From the sequence record NC_050153.1: a stretch of 64,000 nt of DNA; one strand, 5' to 3'. This document shows, in pieces, positions 1-63,309 of this stretch. The number at the start of each line of letters is the position of its first letter. Position 1 is the stretch's first letter. A program made the position numbers and the translations under genes. The notes below the pieces were generated by a model. That model did no database searches. It was not told the DNA's origin and saw only the letters and a list, made by a program, of their open reading frames with translations. Source of the DNA: Escherichia phage vB_EcoM-Ro157c2YLVW.

Positions 1-125
1 TAAAGTTGTTTGGTGATCATGAAGTAGTTGGCAATAACGCCTGGTATATCCCTGGTGCTGATACAGATTGTGTGCTGTTCAATTGCCTCGCTCATCTCTT
101 CACGGGTGACTAATGACGTTCTCAT
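1..125 (-). CDS. Antirepressor-like protein, 5' end only (runs off window start); paralog of the 39863..40900 product
   Basis: Minus-strand translation from ATG at ~123-125 gives MRTSLVTREEMSEAIEQHTICISTRDIPGVIANYFMITKQL, which aligns with the N-terminus of the 345-aa antirepressor at 39863 (MKTPLVTRNEIAEAIALHTTCMPTREIPGAIANYFMITRRF). Start overlaps the stop of the upstream small ORF (ATGA). Confidence 0.6.
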   Translation of the reverse strand, partial: MRTSLVTREEMSEAIEQHTICISTRDIPGVIANYFMITKQL

Positions 126-343
126 AGCCCCTCCTGAGCAGAAGCGTTAACAGGGAGGCACCAGTAACTGAGAGAATTGCGCAAATCGGTAGAAAAGCGG
201 GCAGAGAAAATACAGGGAGCATCCGGAAGCTGAGAACGTGCCTCATCTTCTGTTGGTGCGATAACGAAGTGATAGTGACCTTTCTGGCAGGAGTAAAAGC
301 GCCAGATAAATTCAGGGCGTGCGCAAGGATTGGCATTAACCAT
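122..343 (-). CDS. icd: Icd-like small protein (73 aa), left copy, translationally coupled to ant-like gene
   Basis: 73-aa ORF about 85 percent identical to the 73-aa ORF at 39645..39866; stop overlaps the start of the downstream antirepressor-like gene, as for P1 icd-ant (from memory). Confidence 0.5.
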   Translation of the reverse strand: MVNANPCARPEFIWRFYSCQKGHYHFVIAPTEDEARSQLPDAPCIFSARFSTDLRNSLSYWCLPVNASAQEGL

Positions 344-394
344 AGTTACGGCCTCATGTACAGGTTTAACAACCTGCTACCCGCTGCTAAACGG

Positions 395-560
395 GTGGCA
401 GGACGTGACGGGGTTAGCAGACTGGCGTACATGAAACCAGCAGGCCGAAGCCTCCCCATCACGCCCCACCATAATTCGGGCGTAACGCGGTTTTACGGAC
501 ATAAAAATACCGCAATATCGGAAATCTGCGGTTGTCCGCATGTACATTCAGGCTGCTAAA
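395..560 (-). ncRNA. c4-like antisense RNA and leader region of the left immunity-I-like module (ends not defined)
   Basis: Non-coding leader nearly identical at DNA level to 39430..39644 in inverted orientation; contains one antisense site and two sense target sites that covary between the copies (cores near 357-360, 428-431, 541-544). Confidence 0.4.
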
Positions 561-1724: not shown

Positions 1725-2324
1725 CTATCCCTTTTGATAGCTTATGACACTCAATGTTTTCAACACCTTCAGCGATGATATTCGGGCATAATTTTTTAAA
1801 TTACTAATAATGACATCAAAATGAGGATTAGTCCCATATTCTTGGAAAAAGGCCTTATCAAGTTTTATTGCATGGTATTTATTTTTAATTAATGTTTTCA
1901 TGGTGGTGTTGCCACTTCCAAAATCATCAAGCCAAACATAGTCTGTCAAAGTCAGGAGAAAGGGTATAACGTAATCCTCATCGCTTAAATCAGGGTAGTT
2001 TTCTGATATCTCAAGAGCTATAAATTTATTGTTTTTAATTAACTCTTGAGTTTGTTTATTACTGTATATATATATACATGTATCATAATCTACATTAATA
2101 GAACATAGTATATTATGGCGTTCAAAAAAACACTTGTATTTCATTATTGTGTTAAGTTGTGATTTAAGTAAATTAATCTTCATCTTATTGGTAAACATAC
2201 CCAATACTCTTTGAGTAGGAAGAGCGACACCATCTTTGGAGCGAAATCTGCTTAACACTTCTACTGCAATCAACTTGTTCGTGCTCGTAGAAATGATTGG
2301 TTCTGCAATGTAGATAACTTCCAT
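1725..2324 (-). CDS. Short EAL-domain-like protein (199 aa), probably non-catalytic
   Basis: Contains AVEVL (EAL-motif variant), LEISE, and WLDDFGSGNTT...IKLDKAFF matching the EAL-domain DDFGTG...KIDRSF core, but lacks the C-terminal EGVE/Q catalytic region; AT-rich relative to neighbours. Confidence 0.55.
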   Translation of the reverse strand: MEVIYIAEPIISTSTNKLIAVEVLSRFRSKDGVALPTQRVLGMFTNKMKINLLKSQLNTIMKYKCFFERHNILCSINVDYDTCIYIYSNKQTQELIKNNKFIALEISENYPDLSDEDYVIPFLLTLTDYVWLDDFGSGNTTMKTLIKNKYHAIKLDKAFFQEYGTNPHFDVIISNLKNYARISSLKVLKTLSVISYQKG

Positions 2325-2564
2325 ATCCCCACCCTCAAGTTTTAAATTGCTTGATTTTGCTCAGATAACGAGCCCCCTATATTTACAAGAGTTACACTCT
2401 ACTTTTGTAGATTAAATGTCAATTTATTTGTTTGTTTGTGATAATATTGAAAAACATCAATTAAAACAATCAAAAAATGTGACATAAATCAATAATTTTA
2501 TTTTTACACAACTTCTTGATTTCTGAGCCTGGCTATCTCTATTCTTATTCAAAGCCTCTTTAGA

Positions 2565-4056: not shown

Positions 4057-7000
4057 TTATGCGTATTGTTGGATGACGGCCAGAACGTCCGCCACGTTGT
4101 GTTTTGTCTCGATAATCCACCAGTTACCCGGGAAATCGCTGTTCTTTGCCTTCGCTGGCAGCCAGCGAGCGCCGAATTTCGCCTTGATTGCGTCTTTCGC
4201 ACGGAAAAGAATGCCTTTCATGCCTGAGGCTTCCTGAAGCCCAAATACCTCGCCAGCGGCGAATTTTGGTGCGTACATCATCTTCAGGTCGGCGGTGGAT
4301 ACGCGATAATTCAGACCAAGAGACTGAGCTATGCTGGTGGCATCACCCTGTATTGATGATAACTCTTCTTGTTTCTCGTTTCTGGCGGCAATTTCTTCCT
4401 CCGTGATGTTGCCAAGGGCTAGGTTTATCCGATCAGCGTCGGCCTGTTTCTCTTCATCGGTGCGCCCGGCAAGAACCGTGTTAATTCTCTGCAATATCTC
4501 AACATGATTCTTGCGCATGCTGAGCATTTCCGGCGTAACCTCGTTAAGATCCACCAGCCCAAGGATGGCAAGGTCAGTAAACATTGATACCAGGTTGTAG
4601 GTCATGCGATAGCTGAGTTGGCCATAGGCTGATGGCAACTGCACCGCATCCATTTTATAGGCATCCATAAATTTAGAGCCGTCGTTTACGACATCCGCAA
4701 TTGCCGGTGTGATTTTTCCTGTGGTGGCGGCCTCCCTGATTGCTGTTACCCACGATTGAGTCAGCGCGGCGACTGCATGATTCAGATTGGCTTTTCGTTC
4801 TGCTGCAATGCGCGCACTTGCTGCGTCCATTGCCTGCTTGATCTCGTCTTTATTGCTGTAAATGCCAATGGTGCCAAACTGTGCTGTGGTGATCTCATAA
4901 TCTGACGCCCGGAACTCATTGGTACCGAAAATGGCATTGGTGACTTCAAGTTCAGAATCCCCGTTACGAGTAGCCCCCTGGCTTGTTTTTTCCGGCATTC
5001 TGGCGATCGCCTCCGCTATTTTCTCCTGAATTGCTTCAGGGGATAGCGTATCTCCGTATGACGCGATTACATCGCCATAATTGGAGCCAAACAATTCAAC
5101 CAGGAATGTTTCTGCCGAACGGATCTGGCGGTTATTCCCTTCCGACATCATACCAAGCACCCATTTTGCAATTGACGACTTCAGCGCGCCGTCACGGCGA
5201 TCCGGGTAAACCGCATGCTTCAGTGGGTCCGTATAGGTACCAACAAAATCAATGCTATAGCCTGACTCTGTAGTCTGAACGCCGTATGAGTCAGTGATTT
5301 TGATCATGCCGCGCTGCTGGAAACGGTAGAAATCGTCACAGGAAATGATGTCGTTAATCCCGGCGATGGAGACGCCACCACTGATTTTCTGCATAACAGC
5401 ATCTTCATCAGGAGTTACATCAACCTGTTTATCCAGCGTCTTCACATCCCAGTTACCCGATTTGGTGCCTTTGAAGGTAAAGATGATCTCCACGTCTGCG
5501 CGCTGGCTGTCGAAGTCCAGCGACTTAATGCGAACGATATCACCGGCACAATCGTAGTATTGGCCTACACGCCATGAGCGATCGCCGATAACAAGGAACT
5601 CACTCGCATGGTTAACCAGATCAGGATCAACATCCAGAATGCCTTTATTTATTGCATCCTCCACCAGCGGGCGCAGGCGTTTGATATCCGTCGCGGCCTT
5701 CTGAGTACGGTTCAATAATTTCTCATAGCGGGAGATGGCCTGAGAGATATTAGCCTTGCGCTGAATGGCGCTTTTCAACGACGCGCGATACTGTGCTAAC
5801 AACGTACGGTCTGTGTGATGGACGCTACCCCAGCGGGCTTTCCAGTCTGCGTTATCAGCTGCTTTGGCCATTACCGCCTGTTTGAATTTAGCTACCTCGG
5901 CGGTGGTCTTTTCAAGTTCCGCTTTGCTTCGCTCTAATTCAGCGGTAAGTACCTCCACATCCTCGCCTGCTGCGTGCTGCGCCTTGATGTAGTTCTGAAG
6001 GTCGATAGTAGCCTGTTCTTTCTGGCGAGCGCGTTGCGCGGCTTTCGCCTTATCCATTTGAACCTGCATCATTGCCAGACGTTCGCCATCATCCTTAGCG
6101 GTATACATCTGCATTTCGATCATATCGTTGGCGTCGGCGTTCTCCATTTCAGACTTATCTGAGCGGAGGATATCGGAGATCCAGCCTGCTTTACGCTTCA
6201 GCGTCTTCAGTCGGTATTCATCGAAAGAACCCTTGCCGCAGTAGTAGTGAACGCGAACGCTTGCACGGTTGGAACCAACTCGGGCACCGCGACCGTTACG
6301 CTGTGCGATACTGGCTGGTGTCCATGGCAACGTCAGATGATGGATGTCAGTCGTTCCTCGATGCAGGTTGATACCCACCTCTGCCTTTTTGGTGCAGATG
6401 ATGATCGGAGTCCGGCCCTCCTGGAAGTCGGCAGCAATCTTTTCCAGCCCGCCCAGCGACATTTCATTTTGCTGCGCGATATAGGCGTCATACAGAGCCA
6501 TTTGCTCGTTGTATTTCGCTATCTGTGCATCTGTTGGTTCATCCGGTAGCTCTTTCGGCGGTTTAACCGCTTTCAGTTTCTTACCGGTTTTACCTGCCTC
6601 GGCAACCGTCTGAGCATTCAGGATCCCCACCTTTGAAGGTTCAAGGTTAAGAGCATTGCAGATAATGCGCTTGAGCTTCTGGTGTTGCGTTTTTTCATCG
6701 GTGAAGATGATTTGCTTCCCTTCCGGGAAAAACTCCTTCAGCGTGGCAATCAGCTTCGCGTATTTGGGCGTAACGGGGTGAGTTACGGTCTGTTCGTCAA
6801 TGCCAAACCTGGCCAGGCGCTTATTCACTTCCTGCTCAAATGCTTCCGGTACCTGCAACTGAATAAACTCGCCCTTATCTATCAGGGAGTATTGCGATTG
6901 CTGCGTGATAGAATCATCACTGTCGTCGTCTTCGCTGGTGGCTTGTTTAGGCAAACTGTCCGCCAGCTGCTGCACCGCATCGGCGTACTCCGGCAGGAAA

Positions 7001-23122: not shown

Positions 23123-23734
23123 TTAATTTCCTGCTTTCAGTTGCTTAAGACGGCGTTTGAGTTCGCCATTTCGGGCCTTTTCGTTATTGAGTCGGCCTGT
23201 CTCCTTATCCAGCTTCGCCCGCAAATCAGTGATCTGCTGTTGATTGAAAGACACCGAGTTCTGCGCTGATTTATAAGCGGCAACCACCTGAGCATTCCGC
23301 TGTTTTGCCTCTTGCAGGCGCTGAAAGTTGGATTTTACTGCCGGTTTCTTGTCTACCGGATTGGCAACACGTTTCGCTTTGGCGATCAGTGATTTCTGGA
23401 ATTTTGCGGAGTTTTTGCGGGCCGCTTGCCCCATGACGGTACCAAGCGTCTTGATATCCGGCGACTGAGCGTTAGGAATAGCTTTTCCATTCAGCCTCAC
23501 AGACGATATATCGCCAGTATCGTTTACCTGTATGGCAAGAATTTGTCCGTCGTTAAGAACCAGCTTTGCGGTTTTAACTTTAACGCCATCTTTCGTTGTT
23601 GCGCGGTTGCTGGAGTCAACCTCAATTACCGTAACACCGGTTTTATTGATCGCCGCGATAAGGGATTTCAGCCCCTTTTCATTAACCTGGTCAAAATCGA
23701 CCGTTGCATACTTATTTTTCGTCATCTGACACAT
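23123..23734 (-). CDS. hdf: Hdf-like protein (homolog of a DarA fragment, 203 aa)
   Basis: Shares segments with DarA-like protein (DGQ…, KNSAKFQ); positively charged C-terminal coiled coil. Confidence 0.5.
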   Translation of the reverse strand: MCQMTKNKYATVDFDQVNEKGLKSLIAAINKTGVTVIEVDSSNRATTKDGVKVKTAKLVLNDGQILAIQVNDTGDISSVRLNGKAIPNAQSPDIKTLGTVMGQAARKNSAKFQKSLIAKAKRVANPVDKKPAVKSNFQRLQEAKQRNAQVVAAYKSAQNSVSFNQQQITDLRAKLDKETGRLNNEKARNGELKRRLKQLKAGN

Positions 23735-24155
23735 CCTGTGCGAGATTTATTACGTAACTTCTGCGGATTTGCTGAGTAACAGGGAAAATCCGATACAACG
23801 GGTTAATGAACGAGTCGCCATGCGTAACCATGACGTTGAAATGCCACAGTCGCTCTCCTTTACCCATATATTCAGTGGGTATGTACAACCATTCACTGTT
23901 TTCGCCCTGTTCAGCCGACGTCAAACAACGTTGTTCGCCTTCAATCACTGTCGTCGGCTTCTGAACATCGCGGATCCAATATCTGACTGTTGCGCCGCGC
24001 AAAAACGGGAATTTAGACCGGTATTTGAACGGCACCCGGATGAAACCCGGTTTAATTTCCACATCACCAAGTTCTAAATGCGTGATGTCCTTGCGTTTTA
24101 GCAAATAGCGATCGGCTAAGGCTAACGCAAGAACGCATACACCCCAGCCAATCAT
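23712..24155 (-). CDS. lydB: LydB-like holin antagonist (147 aa)
   Basis: ORF overlapping the stop of the upstream holin-like gene; assignment by synteny and size (memory). Confidence 0.45.
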   Translation of the reverse strand: MIGWGVCVLALALADRYLLKRKDITHLELGDVEIKPGFIRVPFKYRSKFPFLRGATVRYWIRDVQKPTTVIEGEQRCLTSAEQGENSEWLYIPTEYMGKGERLWHFNVMVTHGDSFINPLYRIFPVTQQIRRSYVINLAQDVSDDEK

Positions 24156-24481
24156 TTCCCGCCTCCCTTTTTCACCAAACTTGTAAGAACATTCAGAATG
24201 CTATCGATATTCACTCGTTTCATCCCTGAAATCACCTCATGACCGTTATTGCTGGCTATCGTTACCATTAAGTACGTAATTGATAACTCCCAGCCCTCGT
24301 GTTGCCCCAATAGGTACGCCACCGCGCCAGCTGTCACTGCAACAAAGATCTCCGTAACCAATCCCAACAAATTGCCAGACTGGCGACCGTCTCGGACATC
24401 CATCAGGAACGTGCCTATCCCACCAATTACTGAAAGCAGGAGCGCAATAGCAACTGGAGCTAATTCCTGTGTGTCAAGCAC
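24152..24481 (-). CDS. lydA: Holin (LydA-like, 109 aa)
   Basis: Two strongly hydrophobic helices (LAPVAIALLLSVIGGIGTFLM; LLGLVTEIFVAVTAGAVAYLLG) and charged C-terminus; first gene of the operon. Confidence 0.55.
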   Translation of the reverse strand: MLDTQELAPVAIALLLSVIGGIGTFLMDVRDGRQSGNLLGLVTEIFVAVTAGAVAYLLGQHEGWELSITYLMVTIASNNGHEVISGMKRVNIDSILNVLTSLVKKGGGK

Positions 24482-52235: not shown

Positions 52236-52516
52236 CTGCTTGATGAGAACCGCGCAAATGTTGACTATGCGCGAAGGTTAATGTGAATAGTTGACTATGC
52301 GCGATGTGACTACAGTCAAAAGTTGACTGTAGTCGATTTAACTCCACCAAAGATCGACTATGTAAGATATTGTCGGGAGAAACGTTGACTATACGCGATG
52401 AAATGACCCTAAAAGCCATCTCAATAGCGACTTGCAGAATATTGACGCCAGCAAAAATCCACCAGCGTCAACGAATGTCGCCTATAGTCAACTTCTCGCT
52501 ATCGCATATAGTCAAT
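52236..52516. repeat. Iteron array downstream of repA (incA-like, about nine copies in both orientations)
   Basis: Repeated units such as ttgactatgcgcga, ttgactgtagtcga, ttgactatacgcga, cgcctatagtcaac. Confidence 0.7.
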
Positions 52517-52517
52517 A

Positions 52518-53402
52518 TTATGGATTGCGCTTATGGATCTGGAAGCCGATTTTCCTGCCGTTTTTTATCTCTGAAAATTTAAGATATTCAATAGATTCCA
52601 AATCTTTCATGGCTTTTCTGATAACGCTATTTTGCACGCTAACGGATGATTTGAGATTAAGCCTCGCTCTAAGGCGCTCAATGCTGACAGGTGCAGGGTT
52701 GGCGGGTAGAGCCTCAAAGAATGTATACAGTACCTTGGCCGTCTCTTTGCGCCCGAGCTTATCCAGCATCTTCAGCTTCAGGATTCGCTTATAGTCAACA
52801 TAGTAAAGTTCAGATAGCTGTTTCTGCGGCTGGATCTCAATAACATCAAGCTCGGTATTCAGGCTGCTATATGCCAACAAGTTGACGTTAATGTTATTGA
52901 GATGACCTTTTGCCGCCGGGAAGCGGAATTTGACAACTGTCTGCTGAATGCGTGTCAGAGAGTCATCAATACTTTTACGGAACGCCTTTGAAAGGCGCTT
53001 ACGTGGATAGCCGCATCGATCGGCAAACTCGGAGAATGGCAGGGTGATGATACCGTCATCATCAGGTGCGTAGTCAAACAACGCGGAGGTTATGCCCACC
53101 CACACCTTAAAATCAGTATCCATATCCAGGCGTGGACCATGAATTTCAATTCCCTCATAGCCTTCCTGCTCAACAATTTTGAGGCTTGATAGTTCTTCGG
53201 TTGCGTTCGTTGTGTTTGTAGTAACTGACGATCCGCGACGTAGTGCCACATTGGTAGATTTTAAGGTTGGCACAAACACACCTAAGCGCAACAAAGCAAT
53301 GGGTTGTATAGTGCTATTGTTATTGGGTTTCAGGCTGTGGATTTCTCCTGTATTTCCTGCAACTTCTTCAACGCTAAGGAAGCCTTTATTTTCTTCCAGC
53401 AT
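52518..53402 (-). CDS. repA: Iteron-binding replication initiator RepA
   Basis: Flanked by iteron arrays on both sides and followed by parA-parB-parS; start chosen at internal ATG (track ORF starts 53459). Confidence 0.8.
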   Translation of the reverse strand: MLEENKGFLSVEEVAGNTGEIHSLKPNNNSTIQPIALLRLGVFVPTLKSTNVALRRGSSVTTNTTNATEELSSLKIVEQEGYEGIEIHGPRLDMDTDFKVWVGITSALFDYAPDDDGIITLPFSEFADRCGYPRKRLSKAFRKSIDDSLTRIQQTVVKFRFPAAKGHLNNINVNLLAYSSLNTELDVIEIQPQKQLSELYYVDYKRILKLKMLDKLGRKETAKVLYTFFEALPANPAPVSIERLRARLNLKSSVSVQNSVIRKAMKDLESIEYLKFSEIKNGRKIGFQIHKRNP

Positions 53403-53469: not shown

Positions 53470-53590
53470 TCAGGCTCTAAAATCGCGTACAGTCAATGTT
53501 TCTGTCGCATATAGTCAACAATAAATCGCGTGCAGTCAACAATAAATCGTGCACAGTCAACATAAAATCGCGTATAGTCAATGTTGATCC
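53470..53590. repeat. Five direct iterons upstream of repA (incC-like)
   Basis: Five about 21-bp direct repeats with core aatcgcgt-cagtcaa. Confidence 0.7.
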
Positions 53591-53735
53591 CATTTCAGGC
53601 CAGAAATGGCGCGGCTTACAGCGATCCGGGATCTTCTTTGGATCTTCCTGGGTTCTCTTTAGGATCTGTTTATTGGATCTATGCTGTGGATAAGTTGAAT
53701 AAACCGGCCAACATAGCCGGTTGGAAGGAAGGGTA
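53591..53735. promoter_or_regulatory. Plasmid replication origin region (oriR-like)
   Basis: Cluster of GATC sites (gatccc, gatccgggatct, ggatct x3) and a DnaA box (tgtggataa) immediately beyond the five iterons. Confidence 0.55.
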
Positions 53736-54128
53736 TTATTCTACGCTTTCGATAAGAAGACCATGTTCATAACATTTAAGCTCATCGCCTTCGTACAGGA
53801 ATTGGTATCCAATACCACCATTTTCATGGACATTAGGGAATAACTCATAACTCACTGAAGAGCAAATCACACCAATGCAGCGATCAACGCCTTCTCGTTC
53901 TTCAGTGCTGAAAAAATCCTCTTCGGTAAGAACATGAGTACATTGCTCATCAGCATAGGTCGGAAATACATGCTCGATGCAATCCGGGTGTTTTAAACCA
54001 AGCTGATCGGCAAGCTCGAAAGCATGACGGTATTGTTCAGATCCTGGCTTGCCAACAGTGATGTGCTCAATTTTGTAGATTGAAGTCGCTTTGTTGATAG
54101 TTTGCTTTACTGTTACTTTATCAGACAT
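53736..54128 (-). CDS. Hypothetical protein (130 aa)
   Basis: ORF track. Confidence 0.4.
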   Translation of the reverse strand: MSDKVTVKQTINKATSIYKIEHITVGKPGSEQYRHAFELADQLGLKHPDCIEHVFPTYADEQCTHVLTEEDFFSTEEREGVDRCIGVICSSVSYELFPNVHENGGIGYQFLYEGDELKCYEHGLLIESVE

Positions 54129-54139
54129 AAAAATCCCTT

Positions 54140-54391
54140 TTAGTTACCGCTGATAGCGCGGTTGTAATCATTAACGTTGCGATTCTTCCTGTTAATCCCC
54201 ATCAGCATCGTTTCTGTATCGAGGATATACGCTGGCAGATCATCAAAATATTCACTGCTAAACTCTGGCATCCTGCACATAAACGCACTTTTGGGGGCAG
54301 GGTGGTTAACCTTTGTCGGCGTCGGCGTTAAATTCGCTGATCGACTCCCGGAGCAACCGCTGAGTGTCAGCAGGAATGCGCTGGCGAACAT
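54140..54391 (-). CDS. Outer-membrane lipoprotein, candidate o-spanin (Rz1-like)
   Basis: Lipobox LTLSGC then Pro-rich segment TPTPTKVNHPAPKS; reading frame starts inside the upstream gene in a different frame and extends past its stop. Confidence 0.45.
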   Translation of the reverse strand: MFASAFLLTLSGCSGSRSANLTPTPTKVNHPAPKSAFMCRMPEFSSEYFDDLPAYILDTETMLMGINRKNRNVNDYNRAISGN

Positions 54392-54728
54392 TACCCGCCG
54401 CAACCAGTTGTTTCTGAACTTCAGCTTTTCGTTCCATTTGCCTGTCAGCATATTTGGCTTGTTCTGATTCATTTTTCACTTCCTGGCTGTGAAAATGTTG
54501 CTCTGCTTTGTTCATCGTCTCAATGGTCTGGTTAAGATCCATTATTGACTTATCACGTTCCTTAACAGCCTGATCAAGACTGCCAATTTTCTCCATGGCT
54601 TGCTTTAGCTGATGACGTTCCCATGCAAACCCAGCACCAACAAGTGCGCAAATCAGAACAAGAACACCAGTAGCAGCAAGTTTCTCCTTCAAAGACAAAG
54701 CTGTTTTTAACGTAGAAAAGAATGACAT
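54306..54728 (-). CDS. Membrane-anchored coiled-coil protein, candidate i-spanin (Rz-like)
   Basis: N-terminal transmembrane helix LAATGVLVLICALVGAGFAW followed by charged coiled-coil periplasmic domain. Confidence 0.45.
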   Translation of the reverse strand: MSFFSTLKTALSLKEKLAATGVLVLICALVGAGFAWERHQLKQAMEKIGSLDQAVKERDKSIMDLNQTIETMNKAEQHFHSQEVKNESEQAKYADRQMERKAEVQKQLVAAGNVRQRIPADTQRLLRESISEFNADADKG

Positions 54729-54767
54729 GTCTTCCTCCTGAAGAAAAATTATCAATGAAGTCCTTTG

Positions 54768-55556
54768 TTACCGTGCCGCTTTGTTTAATTCATCAAGAAC
54801 AGAATCAGGAACCAAAGCGGCGACTGCGCTGGCTGTGCTGGCCTTATTTGCTGATGCTTCCGCAAGCGCGGTACCGATAGCATGGTTATAAGCAGTTATG
54901 GCTACGTTGGCGCTTTCATTCGCTCGTTCATACTGCTGTTGTAACGCAGTTGTGGGTGCTGTTGTCTGGTTGAAAACAACCCCAAACTGTTCAGTTGCTA
55001 CTTTCAGAGATTCAATTTGCTCTTCTGTTAGTGCTGGTGGGGGAGTGGCAGTGCCGCCGCCTGAACCAGAGCCTGACGAGCTTTCTGAGCCAGTGTTAAG
55101 GGCCTGGTTAATCTCCCCCATTGCAGCGACTAAACTTGATGTATTAAGCGCGTTAACAGCGTCCTCAAGCGATTTAGTAATATTCACATCACCAATGGCA
55201 ATAGAGATCGGCAGTTCTGAAACTTCTCGCTCATTAGCACGGCAGTAAACATCCCAACCAATATCGAGTTGAAGCAGCATTGACAGATCTGCATAACCAG
55301 CCAACAGGTCCGCGTGCTTAGTTGCCAGTTCTCCAATGTTCGTTAAGCCGGTTGTGGTTGTTCTGATCGTTGAAACATAGCTGGTAATAGTGTCGGGATA
55401 GACAATTGTATCCAGAATTAATCCGGTCAATTCTTCTGCAAGCAGTTTTGCTGTGTTAGCACTGTTTCGTGCCGATGTTATGGCACCAGGTGTTTTCATC
55501 CCACCGGCGGCGGCCAATTTTTTATATGCGGATAACTGGTAGTCTTTTTCCAGCAT
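54768..55556 (-). CDS. Hypothetical Ser/Thr/Ala-rich protein
   Basis: ORF track (start moved to internal ATG). Confidence 0.35.
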   Translation of the reverse strand: MLEKDYQLSAYKKLAAAGGMKTPGAITSARNSANTAKLLAEELTGLILDTIVYPDTITSYVSTIRTTTTGLTNIGELATKHADLLAGYADLSMLLQLDIGWDVYCRANEREVSELPISIAIGDVNITKSLEDAVNALNTSSLVAAMGEINQALNTGSESSSGSGSGGGTATPPPALTEEQIESLKVATEQFGVVFNQTTAPTTALQQQYERANESANVAITAYNHAIGTALAEASANKASTASAVAALVPDSVLDELNKAAR

Positions 55557-55564
55557 GATATCTC

Positions 55565-55849
55565 CTAACTTACCTGAACCAGGCCGTCTCCGGACGCTAC
55601 GGTAGATCCGCATGAAACAGGGTCACCAACGCATACGATCCCTTTACCATTGACGGTAAACCATGCCCTGGTTGATATAGCTTGCCCACCGTGCGTACTG
55701 TTTCCATCGGTATGCTGTGCATATTGCTTACCATCAACTAACACTTCGACTCCGTTGACTTTAAGTAGTGGTTCACTCTCTACAGGAGGCCTGGATGGGA
55801 ATCCTCCGTGCCCCGAACAAATGCTGTCTTTTGTTGCAATGCTTGCCAC
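55565..55849 (-). CDS. PAAR-repeat-like protein (94 aa)
   Basis: Three spaced Gly/Cys-rich repeats (DSICSGHGG…, …THGGQ…, VGDPVSCGSTVASG) as in PAAR spike-tip proteins. Confidence 0.45.
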   Translation of the reverse strand: MASIATKDSICSGHGGFPSRPPVESEPLLKVNGVEVLVDGKQYAQHTDGNSTHGGQAISTRAWFTVNGKGIVCVGDPVSCGSTVASGDGLVQVS

Positions 55850-55930: not shown

Positions 55931-55947
55931 ATTGCTCTAATAAATAT
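55931..55947. promoter_or_regulatory. C1-operator-like site in a divergent promoter region
   Basis: attgctctaataaatat, one mismatch to consensus. Confidence 0.55.
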
Positions 55948-62264: not shown

Positions 62265-62501
62265 ATGCAGAACAATCCGAACAAATGTCGAACGCTATGG
62301 GTGCGGTTATATATTTATGCCGTCCTCTGTTTGATTGTGTCACTGGTTCTGTATGTTTGGCTTTTGCCAAATATGATCTCATCTAACAGCACAATACTTG
62401 TATTGTTGGGAGTCCTTCTCGCGCTCATTTACCCGGCTTTCGCAGTAGTCTTTTTTCGTGAAAAAACCAGGAAATTAATTAATGAAAAAAACGTTGATTA
62501 G
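62265..62501 (+). CDS. Small integral membrane protein (78 aa)
   Basis: Two hydrophobic helices; overlaps start of the next gene. Confidence 0.4.
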   Translation: MQNNPNKCRTLWVRLYIYAVLCLIVSLVLYVWLLPNMISSNSTILVLLGVLLALIYPAFAVVFFREKTRKLINEKNVD

Positions 62502-63309
62502 TGCAGCGATTATTTTGGGTTCTTTATGTCTGACCGGATGCGATCGGGTAGAGCCAGGTAACGTAGGGATCAAAGTAAATAAGCTGGGGGATGATAAAGG
62601 TATCGGTGAAGTAGTTGGCGTTGGTCGCTACTGGACAGGCTTGAATACTGAAGTTTATATCTTCCCGACCTTTAAGCAAATGAAGACATACGATGAGCCG
62701 TTCAGCTTCCAGATGAGCGACGGAACAACCATTGGTTACCACATCGGCGTAGCCTACAAGGTTGATCCAGCAAAAGTCACAACGGTATTTCAGACCTATC
62801 GCAAAGGTGTAGATGATATTACTGATACCGATCTACGCCAGAAGGTTGCAGATGCTCTGAACCGATTAGCCAGCAAAATGACCACCGACAAATTTATCGA
62901 CGGTGGCAAATCTGAATTGCTTGATGCAGCCCTTAAAGACATTCAGGAAGAAATGACGCCAATCGGCATTCAGGTGATGAGCCTCTCTTATGTAGGTAAG
63001 CCAGAATACCCGCCAACAGTTATTGACAGTATTAACGCCAAAGTCACGGCAAACCAAAAAACCCTGCAACGCGAGCAAGAGGTCAAACAACGTGAAGCAG
63101 AGGCCAACATGCTGCGCGCGGAAGCTGCCGGACAGGCTGATGCTATTCGCACAAAAGCCCAGGCCGAAGCTGATGCCATTCGTTTACGTGGTGAAGCTCT
63201 GCGCCAGAACCCCGGTGTTATGGACTTGGAAGCGATCAACAAATGGAACGGTACATTACCGCAGTATATGACCAGTAATACCGCTGTTCCGTTTGTTCCG
63301 GTGAAATAA
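62482..63309 (+). CDS. SPFH/band-7-domain lipoprotein (275 aa)
   Basis: Lipoprotein signal MKKTLISAAIILGSLCLTGC; C-terminal Ala/Glu/Arg-rich coiled coil typical of stomatin/prohibitin-like proteins. Confidence 0.6.
   Translation: MKKTLISAAIILGSLCLTGCDRVEPGNVGIKVNKLGDDKGIGEVVGVGRYWTGLNTEVYIFPTFKQMKTYDEPFSFQMSDGTTIGYHIGVAYKVDPAKVTTVFQTYRKGVDDITDTDLRQKVADALNRLASKMTTDKFIDGGKSELLDAALKDIQEEMTPIGIQVMSLSYVGKPEYPPTVIDSINAKVTANQKTLQREQEVKQREAEANMLRAEAAGQADAIRTKAQAEADAIRLRGEALRQNPGVMDLEAINKWNGTLPQYMTSNTAVPFVPVK

Follow-up and report, generated by a model that had tools for sequence, protein, structure and literature searches.

Does the overlapping gene pair at 54140..54728 (minus strand) of the Escherichia phage vB_EcoM-Ro157c2YLVW record (NC_050153.1) encode the two-component spanin of this P1-like phage-plasmid, and how is that function to be squared with a place beside the plasmid origin and far from the holin and endolysin genes? 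We analyzed the pair in a 64,000-nt stretch of the record (hereafter the window), for which an initial annotation had proposed that a membrane-anchored coiled-coil protein and an overlapping out-of-frame lipoprotein have the architecture of i-spanin/o-spanin pairs. The upstream gene, the homologue of P1 ppfA and the candidate i-spanin gene, spans 54306..54728 (−) and encodes 140 aa, as defined by its open reading frame (ORF) and hydropathy. The downstream gene, the homologue of P1 mlp and the candidate o-spanin gene, spans 54140..54472 (−) and encodes 110 aa, as defined by its ORF and lipobox. They share a dual-coding segment of 167 nt at 54306..54472 (−), supported by the frame offset and by divergence by codon position, in which the last 55 codons and the stop codon of ppfA are read over the first 55 full codons of mlp in the +1 register. 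The mlp gene starts at nucleotide 257 of ppfA and runs for 166 nt beyond the ppfA stop codon. Position 54728 is the ppfA ATG and 54140 the final base of the mlp stop codon on the minus strand, so that the boundaries first given for the pair were exact. The genes are adjacent with the i-spanin gene first, as in embedded, overlapped and separated spanin systems, and their arrangement corresponds to the 'overlapped' architecture as defined by Kongari et al. 2018 (PMC6139136).

Both genes are preceded by a Shine-Dalgarno sequence. For ppfA this is AGGAGG at 54734..54739 (−), 5 nt before the ATG, and the same hexamer was kept in P1, JK004 and the UViG contig. The Shine-Dalgarno sequence of mlp, AGGAAG at 54479..54484 (−), lies inside the PpfA codons Gln82-Glu83-Val84; in all five P1-like relatives inspected it was AGGAAG or AGGAGG, placed 6–7 nt before a conserved ATG. 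Residues Gln82, Glu83 and Lys85 of PpfA were invariant among the aligned relatives.

PpfA and Mlp were 99.3% and 98.2% identical to the P1 proteins, respectively, differing from them by I45M in PpfA and by S7N and V32A in Mlp, and P1 ppfA (gp064) and mlp (gp063) have the same 167-nt overlap with upfB and upfC upstream and upfA downstream. The 2.3 kb around the pair was 97–98% identical to Salmonella phage SJ46 and several 'P1' phage-plasmid records, 96% identical to RCS47 and, beyond the repA/origin segment, 94% identical to P1. Judged by sequence and gene order, the pair is that of P1 ppfA and mlp. What differs from P1 is the adjoining replicon, which is of the SJ46/p0111 (RepFIB-like) type and not of the P1 IncY type; nucleotide similarity to P1 begins past repA and the origin, while SJ46-type records match throughout, with repA annotated there as 'RepFIB replication protein A'.

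Bednarek et al. 2022 (PMC9025707) credit Summer et al. [quoted passage not shown] The Introduction of PMC9025707 assigns the o-spanin to ppfA and the i-spanin to mlp; the sequences indicate the reverse, with a transmembrane domain (TMD) and coiled coil in PpfA and the lipobox in Mlp. SpaninDB (Kongari et al. 2018, PMC6139136 supplement) lists P1 gp064/gp063 as an 'ovl' pair with the same TMD and lipobox. Both the predicted spanin pair of P1 and its separation from the remaining lysis genes had thus already been published, and what we add here is the conserved 39-aa signal peptide, the remote likeness of Mlp to P2 LysC, the restriction of the family to P1-like elements and the widespread misannotation of mlp. 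The initial annotation had described the P1 genes as annotated as a lipoprotein and a periplasmic protein of unknown function, which fits the original GenBank names mlp (lipoprotein) and ppfA ('possible periplasmic function') and is now out of date: in RefSeq, mlp has the label 'Rz-like spanin', and the pair goes by the name Rz/Rz1 in several P1-like records. The original P1 annotation also carried the remark 'possibly involved in regulation of lysis, by homology', an early hint of kinship to LysC.

The features of PpfA agreed with those of an i-spanin. Residues 17–35 form a hydrophobic stretch with a Kyte-Doolittle mean of 2.35, preceded by Lys8, Lys14 and Lys16, and hydropathy and lysines together predict a single N-terminal TMD with the N terminus inside and the C terminus outside. 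The remaining 104 residues are 36% charged. Between residues 41 and 79, 10 of the 12 heptad a/d positions were hydrophobic, a count reached in none of 5000 shuffles, and an AF2 model was all-helical, with helices at 13–110 and 120–137 and a break at 111–119; this model was built from 11 sequences and is of low confidence (mean pLDDT of 60). The heptads and the low-confidence model point to an alpha-helical, coiled-coil periplasmic domain. The sole cysteine, Cys27, lies within the TMD, leaving the periplasmic domain without any. The TMD and a C-terminal motif (RQRIP..T..L..I.EFN) were kept in relatives down to 47% identity. The SpaninDB entry for P1 PpfA likewise gives a 36-aa N-terminal/TMD part, a 104-aa periplasmic domain and no periplasmic cysteine (PMC6139136 supplement). 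A variant i-spanin gene was seen at 59..481 of the GCA_902825495.1 contig (L008), where the first 23 residues were swapped for unrelated sequence and half of the TMD was gone, which is probably a rearrangement or insertion junction.

Mlp carries a lipoprotein signal with the lipobox LTLSG followed by Cys40, after which come Ser at +2 and Gly. By the Lol sorting rule of E. coli, Ser at +2 directs a lipoprotein to the outer membrane; the rule predicts that Mlp, having no Asp at this position, is an outer-membrane lipoprotein. Across the relatives the lipobox took the form L-[SNG]-[GA]-C. Mature Mlp consists of 71 residues with one more cysteine, Cys66, which was invariant and provides the spanin system with a periplasmic cysteine. 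Such cysteines, available for intermolecular disulfide bonds, were found in 507 of 528 spanin systems by Kongari et al. 2018 (PMC6139136). The mlp ATG, lipobox, Cys66 and C-terminal domain (…DDLPAYILDT.TML..INRKNRNVN.YN…) were kept in all of the relatives examined, down to 47% identity, and a TPTP stretch was retained in the closer ones. The lipoprotein had been described at the outset as Pro-rich; its overlap, its different frame and its lipoprotein signal were confirmed, while the proline content was overstated, with only 6 prolines in the 71 mature residues (8.5%), 4 of them within the first 25.

The signal peptide of Mlp is 39 aa long (residues 1–39, 54356..54472) with a strongly basic n-region of 26–28 aa, and its length and charge were conserved in all P1-like relatives. 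SpaninDB remarks 'Too long signal sequence' on P1 Mlp, with LipoP cleavage at position 39 (PMC6139136 supplement). We considered Met28 as the true start, which would give a signal peptide of normal length, and rejected it. The long signal peptide is judged to be no start-codon artefact because Met1 and its ribosome-binding site were conserved and Met28 was not. One Mlp variant (P0081, E. coli, 109 aa) had residues ∼62–81 out of frame with the frame then restored and both the lipobox and the C terminus intact, a change attributable to compensating frameshifts or an assembly error. When the entire 64-kb window was scanned for lipobox ORFs, Mlp was the only one of the outer-membrane type. The other lipobox ORF encodes a 275-aa protein at 62482..63309 (+), in which MKKTLISAAIILGSLCLTG is followed by CD; the Asp at +2 predicts inner-membrane retention and the protein is not spanin-like.

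An o-spanin reading presupposes that the second frame is real, and the downstream ORF could in principle be a chance open frame over and past the gene of a genuine coiled-coil protein, a reading that would suit the frequency with which gene callers miss mlp or call it as a stub of 46–52 aa only. We aligned the 589-nt pair region with four P1-like relatives whose proteins were 59–68% identical and counted, for each codon position, what fraction of sites differed. In the segment coding for PpfA only, the proportions at ppfA positions 1, 2 and 3 were 0.33, 0.29 and 0.54; in the overlap they were 0.14, 0.17 and 0.34 (corresponding to mlp positions 3, 1 and 2); and in the segment coding for Mlp only, they were 0.47, 0.18 and 0.14 at mlp positions 3, 1 and 2. 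The most variable position was thus the ppfA third position in the upstream-only part and the mlp third position in the downstream-only part, and the overlap was the least divergent of the three segments. This pattern indicates purifying selection on both the ppfA and the mlp frames. The tracking of the mlp third position downstream of ppfA (0.47 vs 0.18 and 0.14) refutes the chance-frame reading, against which the conservation of the mlp ATG, lipobox, Cys66 (in all relatives examined) and Shine-Dalgarno sequence also speaks, and we assign it a negligible probability.

The stub calls of the o-spanin gene, which do not overlap ppfA and lack the signal peptide and lipobox, came from several records and gene callers and were located at 54140..54280 in the window and at 2243..2383, 4431..4589 and 4449..4589 in three other sequences (L002, L006 and L007, respectively). 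In MH422554 the stub is named 'outer membrane lipoprotein Rz1', and in another relative (L005) mlp is uncalled. RefSeq plasmid records mostly give ppfA as 'hypothetical protein'.

Profile searches labeled both proteins as spanins. Among the PHROG families, PpfA matched phrog_89 (E-value of 1.2e-25, residues 21–139) and Mlp matched phrog_30284 (E-value of 2.2e-77, residues 1–110), each with the label 'Rz-like spanin'. Neither protein matched the Pfam spanin families (Rz and Rz1 models) at E-values of 0.1 or less, and both scored below the curated cut-offs of the NCBIfam spanin models: PpfA reached 19 bits against the P2 LysB model TIGR03495 (cut-off of 92.75) and Mlp 14.3 bits against the P2 LysC model NF038368 (cut-off of 27). 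In a profile–profile comparison by hhalign, Mlp aligned to P2 LysC with a probability of 93% and an E-value of 3e-7 over 65 columns, an alignment that is in part signal peptide and lipobox, running from the signal peptide through the lipobox to a PTP stretch and a conserved Cys-x-Met-Pro. Given the sub-threshold NCBIfam match and this profile comparison, Mlp is probably a distant relative of LysC. No relation of PpfA to P2 LysB was detectable by hhalign (probability of 2%).

The pair stands in a leftward string of genes that begins with the upfC homologue at 55565..55849 (−), encoding a PAAR-motif protein (phrog_281) of the kind that caps tail spikes. Next come the upfB homologue at 54768..55613 (−), which is separated from ppfA by a 39-nt gap, the pair itself and the upfA homologue at 53736..54128 (−) downstream of mlp. 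After upfA, a terminator-like hairpin at 53708..53724 precedes the plasmid origin, where about five iterons with 21-nt spacing lie at 53478..53585; a second iteron cluster in opposite orientation (52256..52519) and the first flank repA. The initial placement of the pair as replication-proximal was accordingly correct, with upfA alone between it and the origin iterons and repA. The repA and upfA genes adjoining the pair are among the highly variable regions of P1-like phage-plasmids (PMC9603915). In the slot between mlp and the origin, this element and P1 have upfA, two relatives (L006 and L007) a Phage_gp49_66-family gene and another (L009) ∼2 kb of different genes, while no gene was called in L005; in phage JL22 a 4.2-kb segment with blaCTX-M-55 is inserted in upfA (PMC9603915). 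The slot looks like a cargo hot spot.

A place in or next to the lysis cassette is usual, not obligatory, for spanin genes, and ppfA and mlp have no such place. The SAR endolysin gene lyz lies at 13913..14470 (−; phrog_7, E-value of 2e-68), with lydD at 13666..13920 beside it and the late promoter motif LPlyz at 14558..14575. The holin gene lydA and the antiholin gene lydB lie at 24152..24481 (−) and 23712..24155 (−), respectively. Between the pair and lydA/lydB lie 29.7 kb, and between the pair and lyz 39.7 kb, which bears out the spread of lysis functions over three unlinked loci noted at the start.

We then asked how widely the pair occurs. Word-indexed protein searches and profile searches returned P1-like elements only, in Escherichia, Salmonella, Cronobacter, Klebsiella, Citrobacter and Shigella, on contigs that, where their length allowed a judgement, measured ∼90–100 kb. 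From a full HMMER scan of 1.84 billion representative sequences, 35 matches were obtained, of which only two were distant and full-length (P0106 and P0110). P0106 comes from a P1-like viral contig of 94 kb whose gene order matches the one here, and the i-spanin of this contig matched the family profile only with an E-value of 3e-24; the source sequence of P0110 was not found in viral, genome, metagenome, phage and plasmid collections. None of the word-indexed, profile and HMMER searches found a relative in a conventional lysis cassette. Within the range of these searches, the spanin family is confined to P1-like elements and always at this locus. Relatives of 47–64% identity had the pair at the same locus, and every relative examined shared the synteny of dmt-hrdC-uhr, divergent upfC-upfB-ppfA-mlp, a variable slot and repA-parAB. 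Consistent with this, mlp and ppfA are among the 21 extremely conserved genes in 77 P1-like phage-plasmids, across which the length of the pair is fully conserved (PMC9603915).

For expression, we searched the window for the late-promoter motif AGTGATT-N5-TANNNT, which was modeled on LPlyz and thus on one promoter only; the single exact match was LPlyz itself, with none near the pair. The P1 record carries two predicted sigma-70 promoters within upfB and no late promoter annotated in the region, and a generic sigma-70 scan yielded sites no more frequently than in shuffled sequence. Neither JK004 nor the UViG contig had kept the predicted sigma-70 promoter P1ppfA. Between upfC and the divergently oriented uhr-hrdC-dmt operon, a C1 operator (Odmt) with one mismatch to the consensus occupies 55931..55947; the window as a whole contained nine C1 operator-like sites against 0.3 expected. 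We infer that ppfA and mlp are co-transcribed with upfB and upfC because the gap is only 39 nt and no terminator intervenes, and we assume that the pair is expressed during lysis. A speculative and on balance unlikely extension is that P1-type spanin is transcribed outside the Lpa-dependent late programme, from the upfC-upfA string, to give an early or lysogen-made 'pre-loaded' complex, with the long basic signal peptide slowing or regulating Mlp export.

Taken together, the best explanation of these data, to which we give a probability of roughly 0.85, is that the pair encodes the two-component spanin of the P1-like phage-plasmid, with PpfA as the i-spanin and Mlp as the o-spanin, and that it would fuse the membranes after endolysin action. 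The proposed i-spanin/o-spanin architecture was upheld at the sequence level by the TMD and heptads, the lipobox, the +1 overlap, the PHROG labels and the P1 literature. Following the paradigm of lambda Rz/Rz1 and T4 PseT.3/PseT.2, the C-terminal parts of PpfA and Mlp would bind to each other so as to span the periplasm, passing through the meshes of the peptidoglycan. Since PpfA has no periplasmic cysteine, Mlp probably dimerizes via Cys66, its single invariant periplasmic cysteine. The LydA and LydD holins would release the SAR endolysin Lyz, which would degrade the wall, and with the wall gone the PpfA–Mlp complexes would be free to collapse and to fuse the inner and outer membranes as the last step of lysis. 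Being inactive until the wall is removed, spanins would need no tight timing, which could explain how the pair can lie roughly 30 and 40 kb away from the remaining lysis genes, in the gene string beside the plasmid origin.

Two other readings of the function have to be weighed against this one. The pair could encode envelope proteins of the plasmid prophage with a role in the lysogen, such as exclusion, envelope remodelling or serum resistance in the manner of lambda Bor, and not in lysis. Its plasmid-maintenance neighbourhood beside oriR, repA and parAB would suit such a role, as would the prediction of sigma-70 promoters only in the P1 record and the lack of a late-promoter motif near the pair, but diverged relatives do not share the predicted sigma-70 promoter. 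A genome-wide CRISPRi screen of P1 (PMC10695390), in which ppfA scored 1.3/1.2 and mlp 0.24/0.19 and both were classed as nonessential for plaque formation, adds a knockdown without plaque phenotype on the same side; this is a weak test of spanin function because spanin defects are condition-dependent. A lysogen role is, however, difficult to reconcile with the spanin profile matches of both proteins and the alignment of Mlp to P2 LysC, and with the +1 overlapped architecture of a TMD protein and a lipoprotein, which is a spanin hallmark. Moreover, the 64-kb window contained no second ORF for a lipoprotein of the o-spanin type, and no further spanin is named in the P1 literature (PMC9025707). 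We regard this reading as very improbable.

The pair may otherwise be a spanin by descent that has become redundant or vestigial, with the outer membrane disrupted by other means. The nonessential CRISPRi scores of both genes (PMC10695390) would be expected from this, and the lysis system of P1 is unusually redundant, with several holins (PMC9025707). With decay of function, however, one would hardly expect both frames, and with them the C-terminal domain of Mlp beyond the overlap, to be under strong purifying selection, nor length to be completely conserved across the 77 P1-like phage-plasmids (PMC9603915); relatives of 47–64% identity, moreover, still carry the pair at this locus. A vestigial pair thus appears very improbable, and a working PpfA–Mlp spanin remains the reading that we prefer.

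With the pair read as a spanin, the set of lysis genes in P1-like phage-plasmids is complete; these elements are widespread vehicles of resistance genes. The case of ppfA and mlp indicates that lysis genes need no clustering. Automated surveys of lysis genes in phage-plasmids will under-count spanins because records call ppfA hypothetical, omit mlp or annotate a stub without lipobox. Beyond correct annotation, the significance is small.

Among known systems, the pair was compared with those of P2 and lambda. P2 LysB/LysC is likewise an overlapped spanin pair, of 141 and 96 aa with an overlap of 146 nt, compared with 140 and 110 aa and 167 nt here, but the P2 genes follow Y, K and lysA within the lysis cassette, ppfA and mlp being unlinked, and the signal peptide is 20 aa in LysC and 39 aa in Mlp. 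Lambda Rz/Rz1 shares with ppfA/mlp the predicted topology and the +1 register of the lipoprotein gene. It differs in that Rz1 is wholly embedded in Rz while mlp runs 166 nt past ppfA, in that Rz has two periplasmic cysteines and PpfA none, and in that Rz1 is much richer in proline; moreover, Rz/Rz1 form the last part of the lambda lysis cassette.
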